Below are positions 2,630 through 45,448 of a stretch of DNA of 64,000 bases, piece after piece. The DNA is from Candidatus Woesearchaeota archaeon. GTDB lineage: Archaea > Nanobdellota > Nanobdellia > Woesearchaeales > JAFGLG01. Location: NCBI GenBank assembly GCA_016928155.1, contig JAFGLG010000017.1, positions 4,134 through 68,133 on the forward strand. Reading direction: 5' to 3'. How positions within the stretch are numbered: the stretch's first letter is position 1; every line of letters starts with the position of its first letter. Both the position numbers and the translations under genes were made by a program. The notes beneath the pieces are model-generated. The model worked only from the letters and a program-made list of their open reading frames with translations. It was not told where the DNA came from and searched no databases.

Positions 2630-3562
2630 ATGAAGGCCATTGTTCTTGCGGGGCAGGATGATTGCAGGCAGAGGGATGTTGAGATATATAATGCGATAAA
2701 CAGGAAGGATTTCCTCTGGAATACTTATAAGCCTCTGATCAATGTGGGTGATGGGGATTCTTATGTCCCTCTCATCGGCAGGGTTTTGGCTGCGCTTGAT
2801 CAGAGCACGAGTGTTGATCATATCATCGTCGCAGGCCTGCCTGGCCTTGAGAACATCATTGATGTTTGTCAATGCCGTACTCCGGTGACATTTGTGCCGG
2901 TCAGGAAAGGGAACAGTCCTGTGCATAATTTTTTTTCTGCTTATGGGCAGGCTGGTGCTTCAGGTCATGCTCTCGTGATGGCATGCGATCTCCCCCTGAT
3001 CCACGAGACTGGAAGGGAAGGCAGGACAGCTGTAGATAGGTTCGTTGACAGATGTATCAGCTATGGTCTGGAACATGATCTATACATGGGTATTGTCTGC
3101 CAGGACCAGGTTGGTCGTCTTGGACTGGACAGGAGATACTTTCGTCTGGTGCCTGATCATGATCCGGGCATCGGGAGGGATCAGGATTATTCCATTGGCA
3201 GGAGATATGGTTTCCGTGATGCGAGCATATTCTTGGCTGACGGATCATTGGATTCTCCATTGTTACGGAAAAATTTTGGGAAAGCAGCTTCTCTGAGGAC
3301 TTACCCCGGACCATGGTTTGCAGCGGCATATTTTTTTATGAGGAATGTGCTTGATATAACAAATCTGATTGTGAAGTATAAATTAGGTAGCCTGGGTGTT
3401 GATGAGCTTGAACACAGAGCTCCGAAGATATTTGGTGCAAGCCTCAAATTCATCGAGATAAGGGGTGGGGATGCAGCTGCATTTGCGCTGGATATAGATA
3501 TCAAAGATGATCTTCAGAAGCTTAGGGAGATTGCAGAATCTGTGCATTTAAAGCATGATTGA
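2630..3562 (+). CDS. hypothetical protein with a MobA-like NTP-transferase-fold N-terminus
   Basis: The N-terminus MKAIVLAG and the motif VMACDLPLI resemble MobA/CofC-type nucleotidyltransferases, but the Gly-rich loop is degenerate. Confidence 0.25.
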   Translation: MKAIVLAGQDDCRQRDVEIYNAINRKDFLWNTYKPLINVGDGDSYVPLIGRVLAALDQSTSVDHIIVAGLPGLENIIDVCQCRTPVTFVPVRKGNSPVHNFFSAYGQAGASGHALVMACDLPLIHETGREGRTAVDRFVDRCISYGLEHDLYMGIVCQDQVGRLGLDRRYFRLVPDHDPGIGRDQDYSIGRRYGFRDASIFLADGSLDSPLLRKNFGKAASLRTYPGPWFAAAYFFMRNVLDITNLIVKYKLGSLGVDELEHRAPKIFGASLKFIEIRGGDAAAFALDIDIKDDLQKLREIAESVHLKHD

Positions 3563-3711: not shown

Positions 3712-4107
3712 ATGGTAATATTATTTGACCAATATCACTTGCCGAATGATATTTACGAAATCATTTTTGCGACCGAGCAGCAGGTCATAGTTGCAAAGCT
3801 GCTCATAAATGCCATGAAGGCAAATGACGGAGTGATGGGAAAGACAGAGATGTCGATGTTTGCCACCAAGCTGCATGAGGGCAACCTGCTGGAAGAGCCG
3901 GAAGGCCCCCTGAAATCAAAAGCGAAGAAGATCTCTTACAACAAGAGGCAGTTTTATGACAGGATACTCACTCCGATGAAATCAATGGGCCTTATCGATT
4001 ATGACATGTACAAGAAGGTCTACAAGGTTTCGACAAGATTCAACAAGGTGCTGATCAAGATTGGATTGATGTGGATTCAAGAGGTGAACAGAAAGTCACT
4101 GATATGA
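3712..4107 (+). CDS. hypothetical protein
   Basis: 131-aa ORF with coding-like composition and no recognisable motif. Confidence 0.3.
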   Translation: MVILFDQYHLPNDIYEIIFATEQQVIVAKLLINAMKANDGVMGKTEMSMFATKLHEGNLLEEPEGPLKSKAKKISYNKRQFYDRILTPMKSMGLIDYDMYKKVYKVSTRFNKVLIKIGLMWIQEVNRKSLI

Positions 4108-4290
4108 CACATGACACTCAGCAAGGCTCCCTATGCTGTGTTCTACTCAATCACTCCCCACCCCTAAAAACCCTTTATAGGGAGCCGCTTTCTTTTTTTT
4201 TCACTGTCCATGACGACAGTGATGACAGTGACTGATATCATCTCCACATCCCCAAAAATAATTTAAATCAACCTGTGCAATGCGGATAAT

Positions 4291-5343
4291 ATGGCTTCAG
4301 AACCCGTCCCCCAGTTGTATGATATCGCCTGTGAGCTTGACAGCAGGATACAAAGCTATGAAGTTTTCAGGAATGACCTCTTGGCAGCCCACCAGCAGAT
4401 GGTCGCGATGCAGGCAAAGGTCGAGCAGAGCCTGACTGATATCCTGAAATTCGGGCAGAGCACTGTCGGGATAGAGCCTCCGGCAAGGAGGGATATGATC
4501 AACAATGTCTTGTTTGCCGTCGACACACAGATGAGGACAGAGTATGCCATCCCTGCGCTTGAGATCCCGTCAGCAGAAGAATATATCGGCAGCAGGAAAA
4601 GATGTCTTGGCCTTACTGAAGAATATTCTGCGAGGTCTGAGTCTCTCAAGAGATCGGTCGAGAGGCTGGACAGGCAGAAGGAGAGGATGGTGATTTCACT
4701 CATGAAGGAAAGGGATATCTGCTGGAGGACTGGCTTGTATAATCCTCGTCTTGCAGAACCGCTGGTCGCACAGGAGATCAGGAATGTTTATGCCTGCCAA
4801 GATGGCGGGCGGCCCGCTCTGTCTTCGCTCATTTTCATTGACTTCGACAAGTTCGGCAGGTTCAACAAGCTGTATGGCAGCATCGCCACAAATGAGGTGC
4901 TGGCTCTGATTGGACACACCCTCCTTTCTAATCTCGGTCCTGATGACAAGGGTATCAGGTATGGCGGAGACGAATTATTGGTGCTCCTCCCTGGCAGGAG
5001 AGGGGACAGCGAATACTCTGAAGCCATGGAACAGGCTCTCGCTATCCAATCAGCGATATACAACCTGAATCTTGAAGACATCGATCCGGGCATGCATTTC
5101 GAGAAGCTCACTTTCAGTGCTGGCATTGTGCAGTTCAGGCCAAGGGATTCGCAAAGGGATTTTATGGCAGAGGCAAGAGAATGGATCTCAGAGGCGGATC
5201 AGATCTCCAGGCAGGCAAAAAAGGATGGGGGAAACTTGATTCTTGCCTGTGGTCGGGTAGAGGAACCCGAGAATCTGGAGCATGCGGTGCAGCATCATCC
5301 ATTGACCGGTCCTGCTGTCCTCCAAAACATTTTTATTAGGTGA
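4291..5343 (+). CDS. GGDEF-domain protein with an uncharacterised coiled-coil N-terminal domain (signature GGDEL)
   Basis: The C-terminal 180 aa align motif-by-motif with the diguanylate-cyclase palm. RTGLYNPR matches LTGLxNRR. FIDFDKFGRFNKLYG...NEVL matches DIDxFKxINDxxGHxxGDxVL. RYGGDELLVLLPG matches RYGGEEFxxxxP. ADQISRQAKKDGGN matches ADxALYxAKxxGRN. No RxxD I-site is present. Confidence 0.75.
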   Translation: MASEPVPQLYDIACELDSRIQSYEVFRNDLLAAHQQMVAMQAKVEQSLTDILKFGQSTVGIEPPARRDMINNVLFAVDTQMRTEYAIPALEIPSAEEYIGSRKRCLGLTEEYSARSESLKRSVERLDRQKERMVISLMKERDICWRTGLYNPRLAEPLVAQEIRNVYACQDGGRPALSSLIFIDFDKFGRFNKLYGSIATNEVLALIGHTLLSNLGPDDKGIRYGGDELLVLLPGRRGDSEYSEAMEQALAIQSAIYNLNLEDIDPGMHFEKLTFSAGIVQFRPRDSQRDFMAEAREWISEADQISRQAKKDGGNLILACGRVEEPENLEHAVQHHPLTGPAVLQNIFIR

Positions 5344-5359
5344 AGATTGTTTATTTCTG

Positions 5360-5941
5360 ATGAAAGATATTATAACAGAAGAGTTTGCCCTGAAGCTTCT
5401 TAAGAGATATTCAAAGTCTGGTACAAAAGGATCTTACAGGATTGTCTCATCTGATGCAAAGAGACTGAGCAAGCTTGCCGTCGCTTATGCGAAGAAAGCA
5501 GTCAAGAATGGTCATGATATTGACATTGGATTTGTGGCATCAGCTTCACTTCTGCATGATATTGGAAGATTTAGATATCCCCCATTTGCCAAGGACAATA
5601 TCAGGCATGGCATCGAAGGTGCAAGGATCCTCAAGAAAGAAGGGCTTTCAAGGAGATACCAGGATGTCTGCCTGAATCATATTGGTGCTGGTTTACGGAG
5701 GTCTGATATTATCAGGCAGAATCTCCCCCTCCCGAAGAAGGATTTCATGCCGAAGACCAAGGAGGAGATCATCATTTCCTATGCAGACTTGAGATTTCAT
5801 GAGGGTAGAGTTGTGGGTATTGTTAGGGAATCCAGGAGATATGAGTCATTCCAGAAAGGCCTCGGGAAGCGTGTTCTTCAGTTCCACAACCGTGTCATGA
5901 AGCTCATCGGAGCGGATAATAAGGTAAGGAATATAAGATAA
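5360..5941 (+). CDS. HD-superfamily metal-dependent phosphohydrolase (HDIG/YqeK-like)
   Basis: HD signature SLLHDIGRF, plus downstream His residues (HGIEGA, LNHIGAGL) and ISYADLRF. Length is 193 aa. The start is 17 nt downstream of the GGDEF gene. Confidence 0.65.
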   Translation: MKDIITEEFALKLLKRYSKSGTKGSYRIVSSDAKRLSKLAVAYAKKAVKNGHDIDIGFVASASLLHDIGRFRYPPFAKDNIRHGIEGARILKKEGLSRRYQDVCLNHIGAGLRRSDIIRQNLPLPKKDFMPKTKEEIIISYADLRFHEGRVVGIVRESRRYESFQKGLGKRVLQFHNRVMKLIGADNKVRNIR

Positions 5942-6076
5942 TAAGGTAAAAGATATAAACAAGTTCTGATTCTGATGCCCTGTCGATGATGAGGTTATCC
6001 CCGGCTGATCGCATGATGAATTCGAAACGCTCTGAGACAATATATTCAGGATCTGCTTGCTGAGCATCTGCACAAA

Positions 6077-6415
6077 ATGAGACTTATCAAGACAAAGGAT
6101 GGTTACAGGATCCCAAGCTCTTCCCAGAAGAACCAGTTCTATGAAGTTGATCCTAAGAAGAAGAGCTGTACTTGTGCCCAATATCTCTTCCGCGCAAGAA
6201 AAGTGGGAGGCACCTGCAAGCATATCGATGCAGTCCTTGAGCATCTCGGCAGTATGAAGAAGAATGAGAAAGAGGAACTTCTGGAAGTTGTAAAAAAACT
6301 GGGACCGATTGACTTTGTCAAGCTCGCGGAATCTTACAGCGAAGACCTCATCAATCAATTGATAGACAGCGGTGACCTGATTGAGGAAAAAGGCAGGATC
6401 AGGTTATTAAAATAG
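6077..6415 (+). CDS. SWIM zinc-finger protein
   Basis: CxCx(n)CxH pattern: SCTCAQYLFRARKVGGTCKHI. Confidence 0.5.
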   Translation: MRLIKTKDGYRIPSSSQKNQFYEVDPKKKSCTCAQYLFRARKVGGTCKHIDAVLEHLGSMKKNEKEELLEVVKKLGPIDFVKLAESYSEDLINQLIDSGDLIEEKGRIRLLK

Positions 6416-10728: not shown

Positions 10729-11688
10729 ATGAGATATTCCAGACAGGTAGCATTGACGGAAATTGGCAGGGACGGCCAGAAGAAGCTCACTGGATCTTCT
10801 GTGGCTATTATTGGTGTAGGCGCTCTTGGATCCTGTTCAGCTGAACTTTTGGCAAGGGCGGGGATAGGCAGGCTCATCCTGGTTGATGACGAAAAAGTAG
10901 AGCTCTCTAATATCCAGAGGCAATGCCTTTTTGATGAGAAAGATATTGGCAAGCTCAAGGTTTCTGTTGCTGAGAAGAAGCTTGCACTGATCAATTCTGG
11001 TATTGAAGTGGAGTCCTATGATGCCCGGCTCAATGAGGGTAATCTGGACCTCCTTGATTGCGATTTGATTATTGATGCGACTGATAATATTGGATCAAGA
11101 CTCCTGATCAGCAGTTATGCATATGCTCATTCTATCCCATTCATCTTTGGCAGCGTTGTCCAGACAAGGGGCATGATGTTTGTCTCGCATGAAGGGCCTT
11201 GTTTGGGATGCATCATTGGGGATGCTGTTTCTGAGTCTGACTGCACATCGTCTGGCATCATCAACACCATACCGCCGATGATCGCCTCTTTGCAGGTCAC
11301 AGAAGCCATAAAGATGCTTACTGGTCATCCGGCTTCCAGGGATCTGATGATTTTGGATGTGTGGAAGGGGGAGCTCTCCAGGATCAAGGTGAAGAAAAGG
11401 CCGGGATGCCCTGTGTGCGGGGCGGATAAGTTCGGTTTTACTGTCGAGAGATGCAAGACAAAAGCAGCATATTCCGCAAGACCCCTGAAGTCGCAGAAGC
11501 TCGATCTTGACAGCATAAAGAAGCGCTTCAAGGTTGTGATGGAGACTCCGATGCTGCTCGTGATTGATGAGCATGGTGAGATAATAGTCCACAGGCATGG
11601 CGAGCTCATGTTCAAGGCATTGGATGATGTCAGGAAGATAAGGGATATATCTGAAAGGATTTACAGGGTGGGTGTTCATGGCGCTTAA
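10729..11688 (+). CDS. ThiF/MoeB/E1-like adenylyltransferase with C-terminal CxxC domain
   Basis: Nucleotide-binding loop IIGVGALGSCSAELLARAGIGRLILVDDEKVELSNIQRQ, plus CPVCG. Confidence 0.8.
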   Translation: MRYSRQVALTEIGRDGQKKLTGSSVAIIGVGALGSCSAELLARAGIGRLILVDDEKVELSNIQRQCLFDEKDIGKLKVSVAEKKLALINSGIEVESYDARLNEGNLDLLDCDLIIDATDNIGSRLLISSYAYAHSIPFIFGSVVQTRGMMFVSHEGPCLGCIIGDAVSESDCTSSGIINTIPPMIASLQVTEAIKMLTGHPASRDLMILDVWKGELSRIKVKKRPGCPVCGADKFGFTVERCKTKAAYSARPLKSQKLDLDSIKKRFKVVMETPMLLVIDEHGEIIVHRHGELMFKALDDVRKIRDISERIYRVGVHGA

Positions 11689-12751
11689 GGATAAGGAACT
11701 GGATAGTATCAGGGGGCATCTTGATGATTGCAGCAAGCCCCTTTTCTATTTTGATGACGATGTCGATGGCCTTTGCAGTTTCCTGCTGTTGTACAGGTAT
11801 AAGAGAGAGGGCAAGGGCATAATCCTGAAGGTCGCTCCTGAGGTAAAGAAGGAGATGGCCAGGAAAGCTGTTGAGTTCGGTGCTGACAAGGTCTTCATCC
11901 TCGACAAGCCCATGGTGAGCGATGAGTTCTTTGATGAGATAAAGGCTGATATTGTCTGGCTTGATCATCATGAGGTCCAGGATATCTCTCACTCGAATGT
12001 CCATTATTTCAATCCGAGGAAGCATGAGGACTCTGACAACAGGCCTACGACTTACTGGTGCTATAAGGTGGTTGACCCGAAGCTTGAGGATAAGAATAAT
12101 CTCTGGATCGCTGCTGTGGGGTGTGTGGGTGATTGGCATCTTCCTGATTTCTTCGACAGGTTCAGGGAAGTGTTTCCTGAACTGGTGGGCGAGGATGTGA
12201 AGAAGCCCGAGGATGCTTATTTTGCCTCTAGGCTGGGTGAGTTGATAAGGATACTCTCATACATCCTCAAGGGCCAGACAACTGAGGTCTTCAAGTGCAT
12301 TAAGATCCTCACAAGGATTGAGTCTCCGGTTGAGATACTTGATCAGGCAACCGACCGCGGCAGGTTCATATATAAGAAATATCTTAAGGAGAAGGAAGAG
12401 TATGATTCTATCATGCGCGAGATAGTGGAGAAGCACGGGCCCGGTGATAAGAAGAAGGGGATGATCGTGCATATCTACCACGCGAACAAGACCAGCTTCA
12501 CATCTGATCTTTCCAATGAGCTTCTTTACATGTTCCCTGAAAGGATCATCCTTGTCGGACGCGAGAAGAATGAGGAGATCAAGTTGAGCTTGAGATCGTC
12601 TAAGGAGCATGACTTGAGGGAAGCTTTGGAATCTGCCTTGACTGTTGCTGAGGGTTATGGTGGGGGCCACAGGAATGCCTGCGGCGCCAATGTGAAGAAG
12701 CGTGATTTCAGTCAGTTTGTTGAAAAGCTCAGGGGTGAGCTGGGCGTTTGA
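11672..12751 (+). CDS. DHH/DHHA1-family phosphoesterase (archaeal RecJ/NrnA-like)
   Basis: DHH motif LDHHEV. DHHA1 motif GGGHRNACGA. Overlaps the upstream gene by 17 nt. Confidence 0.7.
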   Translation: MFMALKDKELDSIRGHLDDCSKPLFYFDDDVDGLCSFLLLYRYKREGKGIILKVAPEVKKEMARKAVEFGADKVFILDKPMVSDEFFDEIKADIVWLDHHEVQDISHSNVHYFNPRKHEDSDNRPTTYWCYKVVDPKLEDKNNLWIAAVGCVGDWHLPDFFDRFREVFPELVGEDVKKPEDAYFASRLGELIRILSYILKGQTTEVFKCIKILTRIESPVEILDQATDRGRFIYKKYLKEKEEYDSIMREIVEKHGPGDKKKGMIVHIYHANKTSFTSDLSNELLYMFPERIILVGREKNEEIKLSLRSSKEHDLREALESALTVAEGYGGGHRNACGANVKKRDFSQFVEKLRGELGV

Positions 12752-20079: not shown

Positions 20080-21541
20080 TTTGCTTGGCAATCGGAAATT
20101 GGTTTTTGTGATCATATTGGTATTGTCATCCGTAGTGTTTTCGATGCCGCATCTGCTGAGGGCTTATAAGGACAATTCCGCCCTGGTCGGGCAGGAGCCT
20201 TACTATCATCTCAGGGCAGCTGAACAGATTCTCGGACAGTCATCTGTGGATGATCCATTTGTCGACGATATCTTCATCTCACCTTATGATTGCCTCGTAG
20301 CCTTCTTCCTCATGATCGGGCTTGAAGGTATCATCCTGAGCAGGCTGCTGCCTTTCATGATAGGCATGCTTTTCATGTTCTTTGTCTGTCTGAATCTCAG
20401 GAGGGCTGATTCTGACAATCTGAAGCTGGTCCTTTTTGCAGTATGCATCCTGCTCTCTCCCGGGCTGATTTTCATATTCTCATTCTCGAATGCTCTCTCC
20501 TTGGCCCTCTTATTGTCTGCAATCGGGCTGTATTGCTTCTCATCCCCTTCAAGGGCCGTCAATTATCTGTCTGTAATATGCATTTCTGTCCTGGCATTCT
20601 TCAACATCGCTTACGCTTCGATAATGCTCATGATATTCTTCGTCCATATGATCCGCCAGAGGAGGGGTCATCTTGTGTTCCTGCTCTCTCTTCTTGTTTC
20701 TCTCATGATATTCCATCTCTTCAGCATTCATGTATACCTCCAGTACAACCAGGTGAGCATGCTGTCCTCGGCATCTGTGCTCTCCCAGCTGGTGTCTGAT
20801 TTCGGGAGCTTCAAGGGTTTTGGCATATATAACCTGATACTTGCTGTCATAGGCCTCTTTGTTTCCTGGAAAGATAAGTTCAGATATATCTGGGCTTATG
20901 TCCTCCTTTTCTTCCTGATATTCTATTATCCGAGCACAGGCATGGATCTCCTCATACCCGCCGGCATCATCATTGCCATCTTCGCTGGCTTAGGACTCAA
21001 CAGCCTGGTGAGGCTTGATTGGCAGATATCCAAGATCAGGGATCTGACCATCATAATCGTCTTCTGCGGCCTCATCTTTTCATCTTTTTCCCTGGTGAAC
21101 AGGGTGAGCTCATTTTATCCTGATGATGATTATGTCGAGGCTTCATCTTTCCTTTCAGGCTCTGGTGTCGTCCTGAGCCATTTCTCTAATGCGCATATCA
21201 TAGGATATTATTCCGGTCTTCCTGTCCTGCCGGATCCGCTTATTGCATATGGCGGTTCAGATGCGGATGCCATATATCATGACATAGATACCATCTTCAG
21301 CTCCTCTGATCTTGACGATACTAAGAGGATGCTGTATAAGTATGATGTGAAGTATATCTTCATCGATTCCCGCATGGACCAGGGCCTGGTATGGGAGAAG
21401 GAGAATCAGGGCCTGCGGTTCTTGTTCAGGAATGATGAGACGTTCAGCAGGGTCTTTGCCAATGATGGCATTGAGATCTGGGAAGTGCTGGATGCAAGGC
21501 CTGAATGGGTCGGTTTTGAGTTGATTGATGATGAATCTTGA
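20063..21541 (+). CDS. polytopic membrane protein, paralog of the upstream GT-C-like protein
   Basis: Similar topology and a shared PYY-containing first loop. Overlaps the upstream gene by 17 nt. Confidence 0.3.
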   Translation: MARKNDLLGNRKLVFVIILVLSSVVFSMPHLLRAYKDNSALVGQEPYYHLRAAEQILGQSSVDDPFVDDIFISPYDCLVAFFLMIGLEGIILSRLLPFMIGMLFMFFVCLNLRRADSDNLKLVLFAVCILLSPGLIFIFSFSNALSLALLLSAIGLYCFSSPSRAVNYLSVICISVLAFFNIAYASIMLMIFFVHMIRQRRGHLVFLLSLLVSLMIFHLFSIHVYLQYNQVSMLSSASVLSQLVSDFGSFKGFGIYNLILAVIGLFVSWKDKFRYIWAYVLLFFLIFYYPSTGMDLLIPAGIIIAIFAGLGLNSLVRLDWQISKIRDLTIIIVFCGLIFSSFSLVNRVSSFYPDDDYVEASSFLSGSGVVLSHFSNAHIIGYYSGLPVLPDPLIAYGGSDADAIYHDIDTIFSSSDLDDTKRMLYKYDVKYIFIDSRMDQGLVWEKENQGLRFLFRNDETFSRVFANDGIEIWEVLDARPEWVGFELIDDES

Positions 21542-22772
21542 TTTCGGGACAGTGCTTGTGTATGTGATGTCATACTTTGGCCTGTTCACTGCCATCTTCT
21601 TCCTGATAACATTGTATGAGAACAGGGGGGGCCTGAAGAATCCTGTAAATGGCAGGTTTCCTGTCGTCACTATTGCTGTGCCTGCTTTCAATGAGCAGAG
21701 CACTCTCAGACGTACCATCGAGTCCCTTCTTGCTCTTGATTATCCGAGGAAGAAGCTTGACATCATAGTCATCAATGACGGCTCCACTGACAGCACGCTG
21801 GAGGTCGCAAATTTGTATAGGAAGCAGGGGGTCAGGGTTTTCTCTAAGATGAATGGAGGCAAGGGGACTGCGCTTAATCTGGCATTGAAGAAGGCAAGAG
21901 GTGAGCTCTTCGGGGCTCTGGACGCTGATTCCTGGGTTGAGCCCGGCGCATTGAAGAAGATCGTGGGATATTTCAATGATCCGAAGATAATGGCTGTCAC
22001 CCCGTCCATGAAGATAGGTGATCCCCAGTCTTTGCTGCAGAAGATACAGTCCATTGAGTATCTTTTCGGCATCTTCCTGAGGAAGATTTTCGCTTTCCTG
22101 AACAGCATCCATGTCACGCCCGGCCCTTTTTCTATCTTCAGGAAATCATTTTTTGATAGGTATGGCGGTTATTCGACCCACAATCTCACAGAGGACATTG
22201 AAGTGGCGCTCAGGATCCAGAGCCATGGCTATATCATCGAGAACTCTGCTGACGCATGCGTCTATACAAAGGGCCCGAAGAGGTTCAGGCCTCTCCTGAG
22301 GCAGAGGCTGAGATGGTATAAGGGCTTCCTTGATAATCTGATGGATTACAGGCAGCTTTTTGGTTTCAGGCATGGCAATCTTGGCATCTTCATCCTGCCT
22401 GGCTCCCTGATTTCTGTCGGCCTGGCTGTCATCCTTTTGGTCTATACCTTTGGGAAGCTCATCAGGGATTCTTTCACTACGCTGAGGAATTGGTATTATA
22501 TAGGATTTGATCTGAAGGAGATGCTCAAGCCAAATTTCGATCTCTTCTACTTTAATCTCAATGCTGTTGTCTATCTTGCAGTGTTCCTTCTCATCCTGGG
22601 TCTGTCAATGATTTATATAGCAAAGAGCATGTCGGATGAGAAGTCAAAGATCAAGTGGATTTATTTGTCTTATATAGTGTTTTATATGCCCCTCTTTGGT
22701 TTCTGGTGGCTTGTTTCCCTCATTTATAAGGCGACTGGCAGGAAGATAAAGTGGGGGCCAAAATATATTTAA
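21525..22772 (+). CDS. GT2 family processive glycosyltransferase (membrane-embedded synthase-like)
   Basis: VTIAVPAFNE, IVINDGSTDST, DAD, QRLRW (QxxRW), with flanking transmembrane helices. Confidence 0.75.
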   Translation: MMMNLDFGTVLVYVMSYFGLFTAIFFLITLYENRGGLKNPVNGRFPVVTIAVPAFNEQSTLRRTIESLLALDYPRKKLDIIVINDGSTDSTLEVANLYRKQGVRVFSKMNGGKGTALNLALKKARGELFGALDADSWVEPGALKKIVGYFNDPKIMAVTPSMKIGDPQSLLQKIQSIEYLFGIFLRKIFAFLNSIHVTPGPFSIFRKSFFDRYGGYSTHNLTEDIEVALRIQSHGYIIENSADACVYTKGPKRFRPLLRQRLRWYKGFLDNLMDYRQLFGFRHGNLGIFILPGSLISVGLAVILLVYTFGKLIRDSFTTLRNWYYIGFDLKEMLKPNFDLFYFNLNAVVYLAVFLLILGLSMIYIAKSMSDEKSKIKWIYLSYIVFYMPLFGFWWLVSLIYKATGRKIKWGPKYI

Positions 22773-24905: not shown

Positions 24906-25373
24906 CTATTTCTTCTTCACTTTGATGACGTCGCCGAGCGTGAATCCCTCTCCTGACTCAGATGCTTTTGCTGTTCCCCTGACTTCCTCGTGCTGGTCGA
25001 TGATCTTCACTCCCAGATATTTCTCGAACTTCCTGGCAAGTTCCATGCCTGGCTTGAAATGCCCTGACTCGACTTTATGTATCAGGCTTTCTCTCTCTGC
25101 CATCACCTTTGCCAGCTCTTCCTGCTTGAGTCCTCGTTTCTCTCTTCCCTTCTTGACTATCTCTGCATATTCTGGGATTATGTATTGGACGATTTCTTTG
25201 TTTGGAGCAGGAGTCGCCCTTTGTTTTGCGATGCTTGGGGGTAGTCTCTCAGCTCTTCTCGGCTGTTCTATCACCTTGCCATACCTTGCACAGGCATCGC
25301 ATACGCTTAGCATTGTCCCTTCTATCTCTGCCTTGACAAGTTCTGTATCATTCCCGCACATGTCGCATTGCAT
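24906..25373 (-). CDS. archaeal multiprotein-bridging-factor-1-like protein (zinc ribbon + XRE HTH)
   Basis: MQCDMCG...CDAC zinc ribbon. C-terminal helix-turn-helix GLKQEELAKVMAERESLIHKVESG. Confidence 0.65.
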   Translation of the reverse strand: MQCDMCGNDTELVKAEIEGTMLSVCDACARYGKVIEQPRRAERLPPSIAKQRATPAPNKEIVQYIIPEYAEIVKKGREKRGLKQEELAKVMAERESLIHKVESGHFKPGMELARKFEKYLGVKIIDQHEEVRGTAKASESGEGFTLGDVIKVKKK

Positions 25374-25499
25374 GATTTCACCCTTGTATGATTTTTGTGA
25401 TTCAGCTTAGAAATCTCCGGTTTTATCTTCAATCATCTCATCAATCCCCAGAATACCAGTATCAGCCACCTTTATAAATATTACCCCAATGATTTAGGT

Positions 25500-25913
25500 T
25501 TATGGCAAGTCCAGCTTATTTTCAATAGCTGCACTCAATGTCTTGATGTACAATAATGCCTGCACTTGGATGCCTTTCCAGTCTTTTTCATATATGGGAT
25601 TGCCGTAGTAATGGATGCCATTTCTCTTTGTCCTGAATCTTTCGAAGAAGCTCCAGTCAAGGTCAAGTTCTGGATGCTTGACACAGAGATATGCAAAGAG
25701 GCATTGGTGATTGATGGATCTGACTTTTTCAAATAGGAGATAAGTTGCTGCGAGGGTGCGCAATATATCATAGTAAAGCTTTAATCCTGTATTCCAGTTC
25801 TTGCTGAATATTGCCTGTTCAGCAACTTCTGTATCTCCTTTAGTGATTTCTATGTTTGTCATGATCTTGCCGAAGTCAACCTGTTCCAGATAGACTAAGT
25901 ACCTGTCTGACAT
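25500..25913 (-). CDS. HEPN-domain protein, partner of the adjacent nucleotidyltransferase
   Basis: Rx4-6H motif RTKRNGIHYYG. The start is placed at an internal Met so the gene begins 8 nt after the upstream stop. The track ORF extends to 25997. Confidence 0.45.
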   Translation of the reverse strand: MSDRYLVYLEQVDFGKIMTNIEITKGDTEVAEQAIFSKNWNTGLKLYYDILRTLAATYLLFEKVRSINHQCLFAYLCVKHPELDLDWSFFERFRTKRNGIHYYGNPIYEKDWKGIQVQALLYIKTLSAAIENKLDLP

Positions 25914-25920
25914 GCATCTT

Positions 25921-26487
25921 TTATGCACCTCTTCTTTGCTTCTGAAGTTCGACATATGCTGAGACCTCTTGAGGTATTGTACCTTTGACAACAACACCCC
26001 TCAGTACATTGTAGATCACACTACGTCTGAACTTTTTTAATTCTTCCTTGTTTTTTACGGAGAATATCTGGATTTCTCGACGGAGTTTCGATTCATATTG
26101 TTGGAGGTTGATTTCGCCATCTCCATAGATGAAGATATCAATATCACTTCCGAAATACCAATCGCTCCTGGCAAAACTTCCAAACAGGATTGCGCATTCC
26201 ACATCTGCAAGATCATCAAGGATTCCGCAACTGCACAACTGATTCATTGCATATATCCTCTTCCTCAGTTTGTAGTTTCCATCCTCATGATTGCTGACAT
26301 AGTAAGGCATCTTGCCTTTTTCTTTTGTGCGCGTGATGATCTTCTCTTCCTGGAATCTCTTGAGCCATTTTGCTAGTTTGCTTTCTGCAATCCTGATTTC
26401 CTTGTTCAGTTCGCAGAAATGCCAGTGCTTTGCTGGGTTTTCAAAGAATAATCTCAATACATCCTCTTCCTTGCTATGCCTTCCCAT
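25921..26487 (-). CDS. minimal nucleotidyltransferase (MNT) with N-terminal winged helix
   Basis: ILFGSFARSDWYFGSDIDIFIY matches the GSx(n)SDxD nucleotidyltransferase signature. Confidence 0.6.
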   Translation of the reverse strand: MGRHSKEEDVLRLFFENPAKHWHFCELNKEIRIAESKLAKWLKRFQEEKIITRTKEKGKMPYYVSNHEDGNYKLRKRIYAMNQLCSCGILDDLADVECAILFGSFARSDWYFGSDIDIFIYGDGEINLQQYESKLRREIQIFSVKNKEELKKFRRSVIYNVLRGVVVKGTIPQEVSAYVELQKQRRGA

Positions 26488-27181: not shown

Positions 27182-28021
27182 ATGGATAAAGATAATGCTT
27201 TGGTTGTTTTCCAGGACAGGAGAATCCGTAGGATTTGGCATCAGGACCAGTGGTTTTTCTCAGTCATTGATGTCGTTCAGGCTTTGACTGACAGCTCTAA
27301 TCCAAGGAATTACTGGAGTATGCTTAAGAAAAGGGAATCTGAATATGAAATTGACTTGTCCACATTTTGTGTACAACTGAAGCTGCTCTCTGCAGATGGC
27401 AAGTATTATAAGACAGATTGCGCAAATGTAAAAGCGCTTTTTAGGATTATACAATCAATTCCCTCAAAAAAAGCTGAGCCTTTCAAGCTGTGGCTCGCAC
27501 AAGTGGGATATGAACGAATTCAGGAGATAGAGGATCCAGAGCTTGCTCAAGAGCGTATGAAAGAGCTTTATGAGCAGAAAGGTTACTCGAAGGCATGGAT
27601 AGAAAAACGCCTTAGGGGAATTGCTGTTAGGCAGGATCTGACTGATGAATGGAAAAAACGTGGAGTTGATAGCCAAATCGGTTTCTCAATATTGACAGCA
27701 GAGATATCCAAAGCAACTTTTGGCATGACCCCATCTGAATATAGACTATTCAAGAATTTGAAAAATGAGAACCTGAGGGATCACATGACCGACTTGGAAC
27801 TGATCCTCAATATGTTGGGAGAAGCATCGACAGCTGAACTAGAACGGGTTCATGATCCAAATACTTTTTCTGAGCATAAACAGGTTTCTAGAGATGGAGG
27901 AAAAGTTGCAGGAAAGGCAAGGCAAGAATTAGAGAACAAGACTAAGAAACAAGTTATTAGCGAGGAAAATTATCTTGACGAGCCTGAAAAAGTAAAAAGG
28001 AAGAAACTCCCGAAAGAGTAA
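27182..28021 (+). CDS. Bro-N/KilA-N domain protein with RhuM/antirepressor-like C-terminal region
   Basis: N-terminus VVFQDRRIRRIWHQDQWFFSVIDVVQAL is Bro-N-like. The downstream segment LTDEWKKRGV...NLRDHMTDLELILN is conserved. Confidence 0.5.
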   Translation: MDKDNALVVFQDRRIRRIWHQDQWFFSVIDVVQALTDSSNPRNYWSMLKKRESEYEIDLSTFCVQLKLLSADGKYYKTDCANVKALFRIIQSIPSKKAEPFKLWLAQVGYERIQEIEDPELAQERMKELYEQKGYSKAWIEKRLRGIAVRQDLTDEWKKRGVDSQIGFSILTAEISKATFGMTPSEYRLFKNLKNENLRDHMTDLELILNMLGEASTAELERVHDPNTFSEHKQVSRDGGKVAGKARQELENKTKKQVISEENYLDEPEKVKRKKLPKE

Positions 28022-41475: not shown

Positions 41476-41976
41476 TTACTCTTCCATGATTACCTTGGTC
41501 TTGTCCAGGATTTTTTTTGCTGTATTGAGCAGGTCTGCATATTCTCCGTTTTCCAGTGTTGTTTTTGTGTTGTATTGATACTTTTCCCTCAGGCTGATTG
41601 CTGTTGTTTCATGTGCATTGATGAGTGCCACTTTTTGTATATCCTCCTTATTTAGGTTTATTTTCTTGTCATCGATCAATGACTCGATCAGGGAGAATGT
41701 GCATTCCTGGTTCCTGCTTTCGAATCCCTCTTTTAAGAGTATTGACAAGAAACAATGGTATATTGTGTAGAAAAGGCTGATTGAGCACCAGTCTGTGAAT
41801 CCTCCTTTGTTTAGGTATAATGTGGCTTTCAGGTTGTGTTCTGCCTTGGTCATGTGTTCTTTGGCTCTCGTCAGGCTTGGCTCTGTCCTGACAATGCCCC
41901 TGTGTTTGTGCCCTTTCTCAAGCTCTTTCTGCGCTTTGTTGAGGCACCATCTTAGTTTATTCTTTGCGTGACTCAT
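41476..41976 (-). CDS. HEPN-like all-helical protein, partner of the adjacent nucleotidyltransferase
   Basis: Helical HEPN-like pattern (AEHNLKATLYLNKGGF..FYTIYHCFLSILLKEGFES). No clear Rx4-6H motif. Confidence 0.35.
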   Translation of the reverse strand: MSHAKNKLRWCLNKAQKELEKGHKHRGIVRTEPSLTRAKEHMTKAEHNLKATLYLNKGGFTDWCSISLFYTIYHCFLSILLKEGFESRNQECTFSLIESLIDDKKINLNKEDIQKVALINAHETTAISLREKYQYNTKTTLENGEYADLLNTAKKILDKTKVIMEE

Positions 41977-42547
41977 GGTAAACCCTGATGAATTGGTCCT
42001 CGCCAGTCACAAGGATGCCCTTGATGGCATCTAATATTGGCTTGTGTTCCTTTTTAACATTTTCCTGGATTTCTCCGGAAGTTTGGTACAAAGGATGGAT
42101 TTTTTTCGGGTTTACCTTATTTATCTCATTGACTTCTTTTTGCAGCCTCCTGAATCTCCTCTTGTCAGTTATCAGGAGCGCATCGATATCATTCGGGTCT
42201 GGTTTCCTGAGCACTGATCCGAACAGGATGATGATGTCGGCATTTCTTATTTTTCTGAGCTCTGTTATCCATCTCCTTATCCTCGGAGGTGCGTGCAGCG
42301 CCTCTCTTGACAGCATCAGGGAAACATATCTTTTGGCATATTCTGCATTGCTTATCCTGTAGATTGTCGCCTGCCCTATCTTGCTTGATTTCAGGACACC
42401 CTCTTTTTCCAGTCTTTTCAGTATCTTCAGTGCTCCCATTGGTGTTATATTGGCTTTCTTGGATATGCTGTTCGCATTGTAATGCCTCTCCGGGCTCTTG
42501 GCTATTGTCAGTACAATCTCCATCTCTGCTGCTGTTATGTCTCTCAT
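41957..42547 (-). CDS. minimal nucleotidyltransferase with N-terminal winged helix
   Basis: IIILFGSVLRKPDPNDIDALLI matches the GSx(n)DxD signature. The start is at Met37 of the track ORF, with a TATA-like tttatatatataa about 20 nt upstream on the minus strand. Confidence 0.55.
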   Translation of the reverse strand: MRDITAAEMEIVLTIAKSPERHYNANSISKKANITPMGALKILKRLEKEGVLKSSKIGQATIYRISNAEYAKRYVSLMLSREALHAPPRIRRWITELRKIRNADIIILFGSVLRKPDPNDIDALLITDKRRFRRLQKEVNEINKVNPKKIHPLYQTSGEIQENVKKEHKPILDAIKGILVTGEDQFIRVYHESRKE

Positions 42548-42653: not shown

Positions 42654-42693
42654 AAGGCTAAGGAGATAAGAAGTATCCTTGATGAGGATTATT
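42654..42693. repeat. 40-bp direct repeat copy B
   Basis: Identical 40-mer. It still encodes KAKEIRSILDEDY followed by a stop. It abuts the stop codon of the large LysM protein gene. Confidence 0.9.
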
Positions 42694-45448
42694 AGGCTGT
42701 ACCGCCATTTCCTGGCGGGTATGGGTACGAATCAACATACTCAGGTGGTGGCGGGGGGGTTGGAGGCCTCAATTGAAGGAATGAATAAGGATATCCTGTG
42801 AGCACTCTATTCCTATAATATTCTTGATACCAATCCCTCATGTTTTGCATGATCTGGTTAGATTGTTCAGATGAGACACCATATACATAGAAACCTCTTG
42901 ATACAGGAGTTGTTACCCCATATTTTTCCTCTAGCTTGTCATGCACAAATTGGTTTGCATCTGCTGAGCAGAAATCGCAATCTCCGATTGAGAAATGAGT
43001 GTTTAGTCTTTGTTCTGCATTTCTTATTGATTTGTCTCCCACTAGTCCTTTATTGGTTATTGTAGGTTCATCATATGAGAACATTGGCCCCATTGCATCA
43101 TCAAGTCTTTGCTCGAAATCATCGCCGAAATCATATTGTGATTGCCACTGTGACTCCCATAATGATTGATCCCATATTAATTCAGGTGCAAAAGGGTCAG
43201 CTCGCTGCTGTCTCATTTCTGCAAAATATTCATCAATTGAATCAGAAACATCTCTCAGTCTTAGTGGCTCATCTACTATCGTGGTCTCAAATCCTAATTG
43301 AAGATTTTCTGCTAATGCATCAGACCTGAAGAGTGAAGATGGTGATCTGTCTCCAATGGCGCAGAATAGGCTGGATGACCCGCAGTCCTGGAATGGCTCA
43401 AAATCTGCGAGGAACTCCTCTGAGTGATGTGCATCAGTCACAAATGTAGGCTCTGTGTCAAGTAGGTCTAGGTTCCCGATGTCGAATGTTGTGGTATGCC
43501 TTATTTCCTCTCTTTGTCTTTCATTGATGGCTTGCATTTGCGAGGTTGAGATCGTGCTCATCTGAATCCTCCCCCCCGCACCAGCCGAGTACTGTCTAAC
43601 TTCTGTTGCTGTCCCGGGGTTTATAAATATCTGCTCTCCTGCAAAGATAAGGTCTCCTCCTCTATCGCTTCTCTCCTGGATATTAGGATTCATTCTGACA
43701 AGGTCCTGCCATGTCACTGTTTGTCCTGTTTGCATGCTTAGATCTTGTGCAATGTGTGATAATGTGTCCCCTGATTTGACATCGTAAGTCCCGACTGCCA
43801 CATCAAATGATCTTGATGGCCTGTGTGAAACAGCTGGGGCTTCAGGATCAGGTTGAGGTGGTGTGTTTGTTGCCACCTGTTGAGGAGTTTCTACTGGCCC
43901 TAGTTGTATCACGGGCCCGTATGGTTCTGTATAGGCTAAGAACTGTTCACTGGCGCTGTATCCTCCAAAACCCATTAGACCCGCCAGTGTCGGATCTACA
44001 CCTGAACCAATCAACATACTGCCCAGAGGATCATTGAAATCAAATACTTGTTGGCCTTCTGCTATCTGAATTGAATATACCCCATCTCCCATATTGCCTG
44101 TTATGGGCTGTATTGAAATTATGGGCCCATCATTTCTAGGTACAGTATTGAGATAGACTTGAGTACCATCACTTAATCCTGTTGGGGATGATCCGAAAGT
44201 CAATGTTATCGGATCAGATGAATGGCTTTGTGTGAGTATTGTTTGAGGTTGCTGGACTCCTAACTGTTGTATCCTGAGATCTGTTCCTTCTTCTGCCCTT
44301 ACAAGCCCTTGTCCATCAACCCAGGTGTATGATGCCTGTCCGGTTGCATGCACCCCCGCCAGCATTCCGTGTGTTCTAGGGAATGTGAGATCTGCTGCCC
44401 CATTCATATCCGTATATGTTTTCCCAGTGGTTGCATCTAAAATCAGGACAGGTTGCTGCGTTGTCTCCATCCTTATCTCAACACTATTCTCATCGACAAC
44501 TCTCACAGGTCCTAAGAGTCTTGTTGTATCTCCTAGGGTTATGACTTGTATTGACTCTGAATCATCTGCCAGAAGCAAATGGCTGTTGCTTGAAGTCCTG
44601 ATATCTGAGTCATCACCTATTGAATATACTTGAAGATTATAATCATTGTCATTCTCTTTTACATAAGTCGCTCTTGGTGTGATGCCCCTATCATTTGGGA
44701 GTCTTATCTCATGATCATCTATTGTGTATCTTCCTTCAGTGCCAACTGCACCACCATAATATAACTCAACTCCAAGATTACCTTGATCATCTCCTGATCT
44801 GATATAAGTCTGCTGCATTGGTCCGACGATTGTGATTGTCTCAGAACTGTCAGAGGAGCTTACTACAACTGTGTTCCCTGTTGCATCTGTGGTAAATGTT
44901 GTCTCTGTATCAGCTTGAAGGATAAGATCATTGCTCATCTTTACTTGATTATGCTGTGCATCATATCCTTCAACAGTTGATCCGGGTCCGCCCCCTTTCA
45001 CAGTGATGGGATTCTGTTGGTTTTGTGCGTTTCCACCTGTTATTGTAAATCCGCCACCATCACCACTAACAGCCTCAACTGATGATGCCTGTCCTATAGC
45101 AGATAATGGGAGAGGAGTCCCACCAGCTGTGTTTGTCAATGTTGTTCCTGATATTGATATTCCTGGACCGCTCTTTATCTGTGTGCTACCATAGGTTGCA
45201 TCTGAATTAAGGATAACTGTGTAGCTTCCTGTGTTCATATTAGAAAGGTCTACGCTTCCTCTAGTTATTGTTATTGTATTGCCTGATTTTATTGCCTGTA
45301 CCCCTTGAGAACTGATTCCGGTAAAATCTTGAAGTTGGTCATCAGAAAGTGTCTCCTCTTCATCATCTCCTGTCCCTTCTTCTGTTGGCTGAGCAGCAAC
45401 ATTTATGACAATCAAGAGCAATACTAGAAGGACAATGATTTTCTTCAT
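42692..45448 (-). CDS. large secreted protein with LysM domain and Pro-rich C-terminus
   Basis: Signal peptide MKKIIVLLVLLLIVINVAAQ. LysM motif YDVKSGDTLSHIAQDL...WQDLVRMNP. C-terminal PPTPPPPPEY. Start overlaps the upstream gene stop (ATGA). Confidence 0.55.
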   Translation of the reverse strand: MKKIIVLLVLLLIVINVAAQPTEEGTGDDEEETLSDDQLQDFTGISSQGVQAIKSGNTITITRGSVDLSNMNTGSYTVILNSDATYGSTQIKSGPGISISGTTLTNTAGGTPLPLSAIGQASSVEAVSGDGGGFTITGGNAQNQQNPITVKGGGPGSTVEGYDAQHNQVKMSNDLILQADTETTFTTDATGNTVVVSSSDSSETITIVGPMQQTYIRSGDDQGNLGVELYYGGAVGTEGRYTIDDHEIRLPNDRGITPRATYVKENDNDYNLQVYSIGDDSDIRTSSNSHLLLADDSESIQVITLGDTTRLLGPVRVVDENSVEIRMETTQQPVLILDATTGKTYTDMNGAADLTFPRTHGMLAGVHATGQASYTWVDGQGLVRAEEGTDLRIQQLGVQQPQTILTQSHSSDPITLTFGSSPTGLSDGTQVYLNTVPRNDGPIISIQPITGNMGDGVYSIQIAEGQQVFDFNDPLGSMLIGSGVDPTLAGLMGFGGYSASEQFLAYTEPYGPVIQLGPVETPQQVATNTPPQPDPEAPAVSHRPSRSFDVAVGTYDVKSGDTLSHIAQDLSMQTGQTVTWQDLVRMNPNIQERSDRGGDLIFAGEQIFINPGTATEVRQYSAGAGGRIQMSTISTSQMQAINERQREEIRHTTTFDIGNLDLLDTEPTFVTDAHHSEEFLADFEPFQDCGSSSLFCAIGDRSPSSLFRSDALAENLQLGFETTIVDEPLRLRDVSDSIDEYFAEMRQQRADPFAPELIWDQSLWESQWQSQYDFGDDFEQRLDDAMGPMFSYDEPTITNKGLVGDKSIRNAEQRLNTHFSIGDCDFCSADANQFVHDKLEEKYGVTTPVSRGFYVYGVSSEQSNQIMQNMRDWYQEYYRNRVLTGYPYSFLQLRPPTPPPPPEYVDSYPYPPGNGGTA

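Follow-up and report, generated by a model that had tools for sequence, protein, structure and literature searches.

Gene Content of the Locus

The DNA analyzed here is a 64-kb window (64,000 nucleotides) of contig JAFGLG010000017.1 from a Candidatus Woesearchaeota archaeon, a tiny organism of the symbiotic type, and our coverage of this genome is that window. It holds a gene for a protein with a bacterial-type GGDEF domain, followed by genes for an HD-domain protein and for a small SWIM zinc-finger protein. An earlier note, drawn from the sequence alone, had placed these three open reading frames (ORFs), all on the plus strand, at the positions at which we find them (Table 1). The HD gene lies closely downstream of the GGDEF gene, as that note had it, with the correction that the measured spacer is 16 nt (5344-5359) instead of 17 nt, and the HD and SWIM genes are 135 nt apart in this genome. 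The neighbors in the window are archaeal housekeeping genes, including those for an XPD helicase, the archaeal alanyl-tRNA synthetase (AlaRS), Nre, ThiF, a DHH/DHHA1 protein, and SMC, together with topoisomerase VI A and B, a DnaG-like Toprim protein, a Hef-like helicase-nuclease, and further tRNA synthetases. NCBI has the identical GGDEF protein, named "diguanylate cyclase [Candidatus Woesearchaeota archaeon]" and encoded on a contig of 143.6 kb, and a 13.4-kb contig in the Logan assembly of SRR13394437 has the same gene order as the window.

Table 1. Features of the GGDEF locus, numbered by position in the window. NTP, nucleoside triphosphate; pLDDT, predicted local distance difference test score.
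Feature	Position	Strand	Description
NTP-transferase-like ORF	2630-3562		310 aa; between XPD and o131; weak MobA-like match (E = 9e-6, below cut-off)
o131, conserved DPANN protein	3712-4107	+	131 aa; left flank of the insertion; near-directly before HD in relatives
Hairpin GGCTCCCTAT ... ATAGGGAGCC	4125-4201	+	inverted repeat I23 with C-rich loop, then T-run; ends the o131 unit; left boundary of the inserted segment
A-rich/TATA-like element AAAAATAATTTAAATC	4254-4269	+	TTTAAA at -29 to -24 from the GGDEF ATG
GGDEF protein ORF	4291-5343	+	350 aa
N-terminal region of GGDEF protein	4291-4725	+	residues 1-145; all-helical; no detectable homolog
GGDEF domain	4726-5250	+	residues 146-320; GGDEL motif at 4963-4977; Asn at the PleD Asp344 position at 4891-4893
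C-terminal tail of GGDEF protein	5251-5343	+	predicted disordered from residue 323 (pLDDT <50, residues 323-350)
TATA-like element CATTTTTATTA	5328-5338	+	in the last GGDEF codons, 22-32 nt before the HD start
HD (HDIG) protein ORF	5360-5941	+	193 aa; archaeal, TIGR00295-like; ancestral resident of the locus
Small SWIM zinc-finger protein ORF	6077-6415	+	112 aa; CxCx(14)CxH ligands and a conserved C-terminal domain

A GGDEF Domain Joined to an Orphan Helical N Terminus

Sequence profiles and predicted fold agree in assigning the C-terminal portion of the 350-residue protein to the GGDEF family. Pfam GGDEF (PF00990) matches residues 147-315 at E = 4.7e-20 (72.4 bits against a cut-off of 23.8), and the NCBIfam model TIGR00254 matches at E = 1.7e-18 (66.9 bits, cut-off 37.4). 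The characteristic motifs are located as RTGLYNPR at residue 146, FIDFDKF at 182, ATNEVL at 199, RYGGDEL at 223-229, and QAKKDGGN at 308. In the AlphaFold model, for which the mean pLDDT is 72, the GGDEF domain reaches ~85-92. All 50 of the top 50 Foldseek matches to this model are diguanylate cyclases, the first being SiaD (7e6g), a cyclase composed of a stalk plus a GGDEF domain, and comparisons with isolated GGDEF domains (DosC, 3ign, Dcsbis, and SadC) give template modeling (TM) scores of 0.82-0.84 and root-mean-square deviations (rmsd) of 2.2-2.7 Å. The claim of the earlier note that this is a GGDEF palm, and not a member of another palm family, is therefore well founded; a Cas10 palm identity was considered and rejected at only 18.6 bits, with a cut-off of 27.

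The N-terminal region is modeled as three helices (residues 7-57, 63-85, and 95-147) at low confidence (pLDDT 50-80), and the last of them continues into the catalytic domain of the model in a stalk-like manner. A search with the N-terminal 143 residues alone returned nothing at E ≤ 10 among 5.8 billion proteins, and no paralog of this region turned up in either the window or the related loci. This uncharacterized helical N terminus, the GGDEL signature, and the lack of an RxxD I-site had all been described in the earlier note, and we confirm each of them.

The closest architectural parallels are bacterial stalk or coiled-coil cyclases, namely SiaD (7e6g), DgcB (6ttr), WspR (3bre/3i5c), and DgcR (6zxm), which have the same C-terminal GGDEF fold (Foldseek E ~1e-11) with a long helix entering the domain. 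These enzymes share the GG[DE]E core, the metal-binding Asp, and Asn335, Arg366, and Lys442 (PleD numbering) with the archaeal protein, and the NCBIfam model for SiaD is matched at 2.6e-13, far below its equivalog cut-off. Unlike these bacterial cyclases, the protein described here is encoded by an archaeon, has an N terminus without homologs, lacks the RxxD I-site, and is accompanied neither by a partner such as SiaC nor by a receiver domain. It further differs from them at the active site, where the guanine-binding Asp is replaced by Asn, Arg446 by Gly, and the NRR turn by NPR.

The GGDEF Gene Interrupts a Conserved Archaeal Gene Block

The earlier note had presented the GGDEF, HD, and SWIM genes as a contiguous module, a view that the gene order of related genomes contradicts. 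Eighty loci were retrieved through o131, the conserved protein encoded to the left of the GGDEF gene (the best 80 of at least 579 matching stretches, at 64-72% identity, from Woesearchaeota/Nanoarchaeota-type genomes). In all, 88 loci were searched for the window proteins. Not counting the window's own copy, this set comprises 84 loci, 83 of which come from DPANN-type archaeal assemblies, and none of the 84 has a GGDEF gene. Eight loci (L038, L039, L049, L053, L057, L062, L064, and L082) contain instead a block consisting of a winged helix-turn-helix gene on the opposite strand, XPD, o131, HD, and SWIM, and the distance between o131 and HD is 89-117 nt in the seven of these where the spacer is measurable. 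The start of the SWIM gene overlaps the stop of the HD gene by 4 nt in five of the eight relatives, an overlap typical of translational coupling.

Loci reached from the other genes give the same picture. Four further HD homologs, found at five loci in DPANN metagenomes and metagenome-assembled genomes (MAGs), have no GGDEF neighbor, and one of them (L003) again reads XPD ... o131 - HD, with an o131 that is 62% identical to the one in the window. The trio is likewise missing around the bacterial GGDEF genes nearest to ours, whose loci have neither an HD nor a SWIM neighbor.

Because the HD-SWIM pair is kept in genomes without GGDEF, the two genes pre-date the GGDEF gene at this locus. The absence of GGDEF elsewhere, together with the near-adjacency of o131 and HD in relatives, identifies the segment from ~4202 to 5359 as a lineage-specific insertion of a single gene. 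No convincing direct or inverted repeats flank this segment, and no integrase, transposase, or recombinase gene is found nearby.

The Insertion Is Part of a Genuine Archaeal Genome

GGDEF domains are nearly absent from archaea, and surveys have warned that archaeal GGDEF matches may represent contamination (PMC5847659, PMC10086821). An artefact of assembly or binning, in which a bacterial GGDEF gene was misjoined into an archaeal contig, would also be in keeping with the GC content of the gene, which at 0.514 lies 1.6 standard deviations above the window mean of 0.455 (standard deviation 0.036). We nevertheless consider such an artefact highly implausible on several grounds. The ORF is only 1.05 kb long, and on either side, at a distance of no more than 200 nt, lie conserved Woesearchaeota genes that have 37-72% identity to their orthologs and follow the conserved order. 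Both junctions are identical in the 143.6-kb NCBI MAG contig and in the 13.4-kb Logan contig. The synonymous codon usage of the gene cannot be told apart from that of the 51 further long ORFs in the window (z = 0.01) and carries no signature of recent transfer, and all bacterial proteins are at most ~38% identical to its product.

An archaeal-type element upstream of the GGDEF gene points in the same direction. Similar TATA-like elements occur 28-33 nt upstream of ~13 other genes of the window, including those for AlaRS, Nre, and the Hef-like helicase, and these elements are probably archaeal promoters that would give rise to leaderless or short-leader mRNA. By analogy with them, the element CATTTTTATTA in the last GGDEF codons may act as a promoter for the HD gene. 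With its syntenic flanks and host-like codon usage, the GGDEF gene is encoded on a genuine Woesearchaeota contig, as the earlier note had supposed, and the combination of host-like codon usage and a TATA-type element suggests that any transfer took place long ago.

Relatives and Origin of the GGDEF Protein

A word-indexed search of 5.8 billion proteins returned only the protein itself, followed by bacterial GGDEF domains at E ≥ 1.6e-6. An exhaustive phmmer search of 1.84 billion representative sequences gave 19,115 matches at E ≤ 0.001, among which only the protein itself lies at E ≤ 1e-30. The remaining matches begin only from residues ~70-120 onward, none being a full-length relative, and the best domain matches are 30-38% identical. 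With one exception, all of the nearest domains that have a name or a readable context are bacterial, and include members of the Burkholderiaceae, Acidimicrobiales, Acidobacteriota, Roseospirillum, and Telmatospirillum; further bacterial neighbors were recognized by the presence of ECF sigma factors (sigma-70) or Liv transporters on their contigs. Since the gene is absent from all 84 other loci and its named nearest domains are otherwise bacterial, the suggestion of the earlier note that it may have been horizontally acquired, rather than being ancestral, holds up.

The exception (P0189) is RMD58605.1, a second Woesearchaeota GGDEF protein of 505 aa, encoded in a different MAG (L086 6480-7997; GCA_003694525.1, RFLK01000007.1). 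It resembles the window protein in its long helical N terminus, the Asn at the position of PleD Asp344, an FGxFN motif, and a TATA-like element at about -28, and differs from it in having the motif RWGGEEI and an unrelated N-terminal sequence. The shared Asn hints at a DPANN-specific GGDEF clade, a possibility that we rejected because the domain of P0189 is nearer to bacterial cyclases, scoring 84 bits with an Acidobacteriota cyclase versus 57 bits with the window protein (rank 76 of 260). The two Woesearchaeota GGDEF genes thus look independently acquired. Archaeal GGDEF proteins noted previously are CAJ37382 of Methanocella arvoryzae and a REC-GGDEF protein of Candidatus Micrarchaeum (PMC5847659), which, going by their published description, are likewise rare, isolated genes in archaeal genomes. 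For the gene in the window, the sequence comparisons are best read as pointing to a bacterial GGDEF domain that was transferred long ago, underwent amelioration, and was fused to, or grew, an orphan helical N terminus.

The HD and SWIM Proteins Are Older Residents of the Locus

The HD protein matches Pfam HD (PF01966) at E = 2.4e-7 and the NCBIfam HDIG model at E = 2e-7. It also matches the archaeal family TIGR00295 (E = 5e-22) and carries an H..HD..H..H..D ligand pattern, and with a score of 78.4 bits against a cut-off of 172 it is, as judged by the profile, a relative of this family rather than a certified member. Our literature search on TIGR00295 found nothing. The 82 homologs of the HD protein come mostly from DPANN archaea and Methanosarcinales and also from Altiarchaeota, and those that NCBI names TIGR00295 match at E-values of 1e-20 to 1e-9. 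The residues His66, Asp67, Arg70, His83, His107, Glu135, Glu136, and Asp143 are invariant in the family. At residue 32 (5453-5455), the first metal ligand, 45 of the 46 sequences have His, and the sole exception, an Asp, is the copy in the window; the HD protein beside the GGDEF gene may accordingly have altered metal chemistry or reduced activity. An adjoining Val that is otherwise invariant is Leu in the window copy. At the other end of the gene, a 22-nt tandem duplication (GATAATAAGGTAAGGAATATAA / GATAATAAGGTAAAAGATATAA) at 5915-5958 spans the stop codon, and the HD protein of this genome is ~11-15 aa longer than its orthologs.

The AlphaFold model of the HD protein has a pLDDT of 94. A direct search of PDB sequences with the protein gave no matches, and the family profile alone reached the HD domain of PgpH, a c-di-AMP phosphodiesterase, which is the nearest solved relative (E = 1.1e-8 by profile; E = 1.6e-4 by fold, with TM scores of 0.45-0.52 and an rmsd of 7-9 Å). 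Next in order is an HD-GYP enzyme, at 1.5e-3 by profile and 1e-2 by fold. The similarity to PgpH is remote (17% identity, TM ~0.5), and the HD protein is without the seven-transmembrane sensor. A YqeK-like identity, as proposed in the earlier note, was not borne out, there being no YqeK model among the NCBIfam matches and the YqeK structure 8jja being matched by the family profile at only E = 1.7e-3 over ~50 residues. Assignment as an HD-GYP c-di-GMP phosphodiesterase was rejected as well, given that only PF01966 matches, that HD_5 (PF13487) does not, and that no GYP occurs in the sequence. A 2023 review describes the c-di-AMP-degrading proteins of archaea as unknown (PMC10249747). The similarity to PgpH provides a weak but testable lead that TIGR00295-like HD proteins in general might be c-di-AMP phosphodiesterases; it does not speak for a connection with GGDEF.

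The SWIM protein scores 19.1 bits with Pfam SWIM (PF04434), just under the cut-off of 19.6. It shares the CxC..CxH ligands of that zinc finger and differs from it in being a stand-alone protein of 112 aa with an extra conserved C-terminal domain. The Cys/His ligands are kept in 8 orthologs and the C-terminal domain in all full-length ones. Orthologs stand directly after the HD gene in nine related loci, eight of which were examined in detail, and the SWIM gene is the conserved partner of the HD gene in these genomes, in every case coupled to it.

With both proteins characterized, the proposal of a second-messenger module can be weighed, in which the GGDEF protein would make a cyclic dinucleotide, the HD protein would hydrolyze it, and the SWIM protein would act as effector or regulator, the functional link having arisen after the insertion. 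We consider it improbable. The short gap and common strand of GGDEF and HD favor it, as do the binuclear-type ligands H..HD..H..H..D that the HD family keeps and the fact that its closest relatives of solved structure are cyclic-dinucleotide phosphodiesterases. The resemblance to PgpH is nonetheless structurally loose, however, and a match to GYP, HD_5, or YqeK is lacking. The HD-SWIM pair, moreover, is maintained without GGDEF in eight relatives, and HD alone in many more, with GGDEF at no other locus; and it is the HD copy of this genome, alone among 46, in which the first ligand His is missing. The genes for HD and SWIM also stand apart here instead of overlapping, and each gene has a TATA-like element of its own. 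Having its own element, the HD gene need not be co-transcribed with the GGDEF gene, and the 16-nt spacer leaves read-through possible.

An Active Site with Conserved Metal Ligands and an Altered Base-reading Position

In PleD, Asn335 and Asp344 recognize guanine, and Lys332, Lys442, and Arg446 bind the triphosphate. We located the corresponding positions through PDB alignments to DgcR, WspR, and PleD, and took residue frequencies from 257 domains in the 159 best matches, a set biased toward sequences similar to the query. Asp327, Asp329, Asn335, Arg366, the GGDE core, and Lys442 (PleD numbering) are all kept, so that every acidic metal ligand is intact; Asp184 aligns with the metal-binding Asp327 and Asn192 with Asn335. 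The position of Asp344 is occupied by Asn201. Among the 257 neighboring domains, this position is Asp in 239, Asn in 9, His in 4, and Ser in 2, and the Asn occurs alongside an intact GG[DE]E[FIL] in several bacterial proteins. With Asp344 lost to Asn, the canonical guanine-recognition pair is broken, and by alignment the protein departs at this position from what defines a canonical diguanylate cyclase.

Substitutions extend to the triphosphate site. Arg446 is replaced by Gly; among the 67 domains with a residue aligned there, Arg is found in 53, Gly in 6, and Lys in 6. Lys332 is replaced by Gly and Asp336 by Lys, giving an "FGxxNK" motif in which the Lys stands four residues later, and the pieces of this motif recur in bacterial relatives with an intact GG[DE]EF (Gly332 in 50 and Lys336 in 25 of the 257 domains). 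Two other substrate-contact positions have changed as well (H340S and G343T), and the conserved turn carries D144C, L146R, and R152P. The I-site, five residues before GGDEF, reads GPDD, Arg having been replaced by Gly.

The earlier note had singled out the change of Phe372 to Leu (GGDEL) and the Pro in place of the first Arg of the NRR turn (NPR) as possible determinants of the nucleotide product. Because the former is common, occurring in 31 of the 257 neighboring domains, it is unlikely to set product identity. The latter is indeed rare, Pro being found in 0 of 112 neighbors, but an effect on the product is conjecture. The deviations that appear most relevant are instead D344N and R446G, neither of which had been mentioned.

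A deviation at the same base-reading site is known from Hypr GGDEF enzymes (GacA and Bd0367, which make 3',3'-cGAMP), where the residue equivalent to PleD Asp344 is Ser348 in GacA and the motif is GGDE-. Ser at this position is what leads Hypr enzymes to cGAMP, and according to the "Goldilocks" model, short or altered residues there require GGDE- rather than GGEE- (PMC6456294). The window protein is like them in deviating at this position and in having the GGDE- motif, and the GacA structure (6d9m) is only an ordinary match. Membership in the Hypr family of cGAMP synthases was rejected, as the residue at 344/348 is Asn instead of Ser or Thr.

In view of the Asn at the base-reading site, the Gly at Arg446, and the NPR turn, neither substrate nor product, nor even activity, can be assumed from the canonical diguanylate cyclases. 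From the sequence, we see the prospects for catalytic activity of any kind as evenly balanced, and we would put forward c-di-GMP as the product only tentatively, with the odds against it. A domain that is enzymatically dead, whether as a nucleotide-binding or protein-interaction domain or as the decaying remnant of a transferred gene, is a less favored but serious alternative. The Pfam score of 72 bits is low for the family, and substitutions at positions 344, 446, 340, and 343 and in the turn (144, 146, and 152) would be expected of such a domain. The protein is also a singleton, with no ortholog in any of our searches, and no other c-di-GMP machinery was seen in the window. Against this stand the intact acidic metal ligands, GGDE core, Asn335, Arg366, and Lys442, as well as an intact ORF of 350 codons, whose codon usage is like that of the host and which follows a promoter-like element, and the bacterial precedents in which Asn344 accompanies an intact signature motif. 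Degenerate receptor-type GGDEF domains generally bind c-di-GMP via the RxxD I-site, and this usual binding route is missing here. Taken together, we regard a dead domain as rather unlikely.

Flanking Elements and Other Genes of the Window

The left flank of the insertion, o131, is among the best-conserved Woesearchaeota/Nanoarchaeota genes. It usually follows the XPD helicase gene, and some genomes have two copies. The protein has no Pfam or NCBIfam match, and a weak match to a PHROG annotated as "transcriptional regulator" (E = 0.005). Between XPD and o131, the window contains the NTP-transferase-like ORF, which occurs in none of the 84 other loci and thus represents a further lineage-specific insertion into this block. 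As with the GGDEF segment, no flanking repeats or recombinase genes were found that could account for it, and a sequence search of the PDB gave no relatives of its product.

The RNA-like hairpin directly 3' of o131 has a G+C-rich stem of 9-10 bp (GGCTCCC/GGGAGCC, GGCCCCC/GGGGGCC, GGGCTTCTC/GAGGAGCCC), a conserved C-rich loop (TTCT...AACCACCCCC), and a T-run after it. It is present in 43 of 82 sequences, counting the window and its copy L001, and stands at the same position in L003, L007, L009, L010, L014-L016, L018, L020, L023-L028, L035, L038-L040, and others. In sequences preselected for a 7-nt inverted repeat, 91% of the stem cells are paired, and two-sided changes are seen in 63 cells compared with 17 ± 4.8 in shuffles. 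The hairpin could be a conserved terminator or 3'-untranslated region element. Its C-rich loop is complementary to the GGGG(A) ribosome-binding sites that precede HD in relatives. An Rfam scan of the window gave no matches at gathering thresholds.

Two readings of the locus as a whole were tried and rejected. A defense system is not indicated, as PADLOC gave no match for the GGDEF, HD, or SWIM proteins or for the NTP-transferase-like ORF; five proteins were scanned in all, and the single match was a weak one, of o131 to Cas2_II (E = 8.6e-4). A phage origin is not indicated either, the PHROGs having returned only GGDEF-containing families of unknown function.

Elsewhere in the window are genes of two classes that have been linked to cyclic-dinucleotide signaling in bacteria, GT2 synthases and DHH/DHHA1 phosphodiesterases. 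The first is a GT2 glycosyltransferase of the cellulose/chitin/poly-N-acetylglucosamine-synthase type, without a PilZ domain (21528-22772), and the second a 357-aa DHH/DHHA1 protein of the nanoRNase/pApA-phosphodiesterase type (11678-12751). Two apparent nucleotidyltransferase pairs and one Bro-N domain protein are encoded at 25500-26487, 41476-42547, and 27182-28021. In one pair, a Polbeta/NTP_transf_2 protein is joined by a small partner ORF without a match in Pfam; the second pair, a DUF6932/Polbeta protein and a HEPN protein, would fit a toxin-antitoxin or defense role. Bro-N domains are often found in viruses and mobile elements. Two proteins of 918 and 865 aa, encoded on the minus strand at 42692-45448 and 48065-50662, have LysM as their only recognized domain. 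The GC content at third codon positions of their genes is markedly low (0.33 and 0.28, against a mean of 0.54), and they may be of foreign origin or belong to the cell surface. Codon usage in a 161-codon ORF at 24925-25410 is strongly aberrant (z = -4.2); this ORF lacks a match in Pfam and is probably not a real gene.

Discussion

We favor the interpretation that a single bacterial-type GGDEF gene was inserted into an old, conserved archaeal gene block, so that its adjacency to the HD and SWIM genes is probably a historical accident. In this scenario, a Woesearchaeota lineage would have acquired the GGDEF catalytic domain from bacteria, and the gene would have entered alone between o131 and a pre-existing HD-SWIM pair that appears translationally coupled in relatives. 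Its product would be a cytoplasmic protein that is probably dimerized by the N-terminal helical stalk. Two GGDEF domains held together by these helices could then join two purine NTPs to form a cyclic dinucleotide, and the lack of an RxxD I-site would mean that there is no feedback by the product.

Several points weigh against this interpretation. The transfer is deduced from distribution rather than from a tree and comes with no named donor lineage, and even among 1.84 billion representatives, the closest relative is only ~38% identical. The GGDEF protein is a cluster of one member from one genome, and selection on it is therefore unmeasurable. The GGDEF and HD genes are on the same strand and 16 nt apart, which makes co-transcription and a secondary functional link possible. 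The domain is also divergent (72 bits; D344N shared by 9 of 257 domains, R446G by 6 of 67, and the Pro of NPR by 0 of 112) and may be catalytically dead, and no PilZ, EAL, HD-GYP, or MshEN domain is found among the ~50 long ORFs of the window.

A more far-reaching hypothesis is that an Asn-type GGDEF domain makes c-di-GMP or a mixed or adenine-containing dinucleotide in this DPANN archaeon and that the adjoining PgpH-like HD protein is the phosphodiesterase for it. A mixed or adenine-containing product is conceivable because Asn can read both adenine and guanine. We consider this hypothesis unlikely as a whole. Were it true, it would constitute the first GGDEF-based second messenger in Archaea, the HD protein would be the missing archaeal cyclic-dinucleotide phosphodiesterase, and the insertion site beside the HD gene would have been selected and not accidental.

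Under the favored interpretation of an isolated insertion, the meaning of the locus is more modest. The GGDEF family, other archaeal GGDEF proteins, and the NCBI annotation of the window protein were already known; what is new is a well-authenticated archaeal GGDEF gene with a mapped insertion site, an orphan N terminus, and an unusual active site. According to reviews, there has been no detection of c-di-GMP in any archaeon, and the few archaeal GGDEF matches are perhaps contamination (PMC10249747, PMC5847659, PMC10086821). On the strength of its syntenic archaeal block, host codon usage, and archaeal-type promoter element, the locus described here is a clean counter-example to that concern at the genomic level, and it is a good candidate in which to test for an archaeal GGDEF-derived nucleotide. 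The tempting inference of a three-gene module is removed, since HD and SWIM form an older, independently conserved pair and stand outside the system. Finally, the Asn at the base-reading site is common to two Woesearchaeota GGDEF proteins that look independently acquired, which offers a small lead on the product specificity of these domains.

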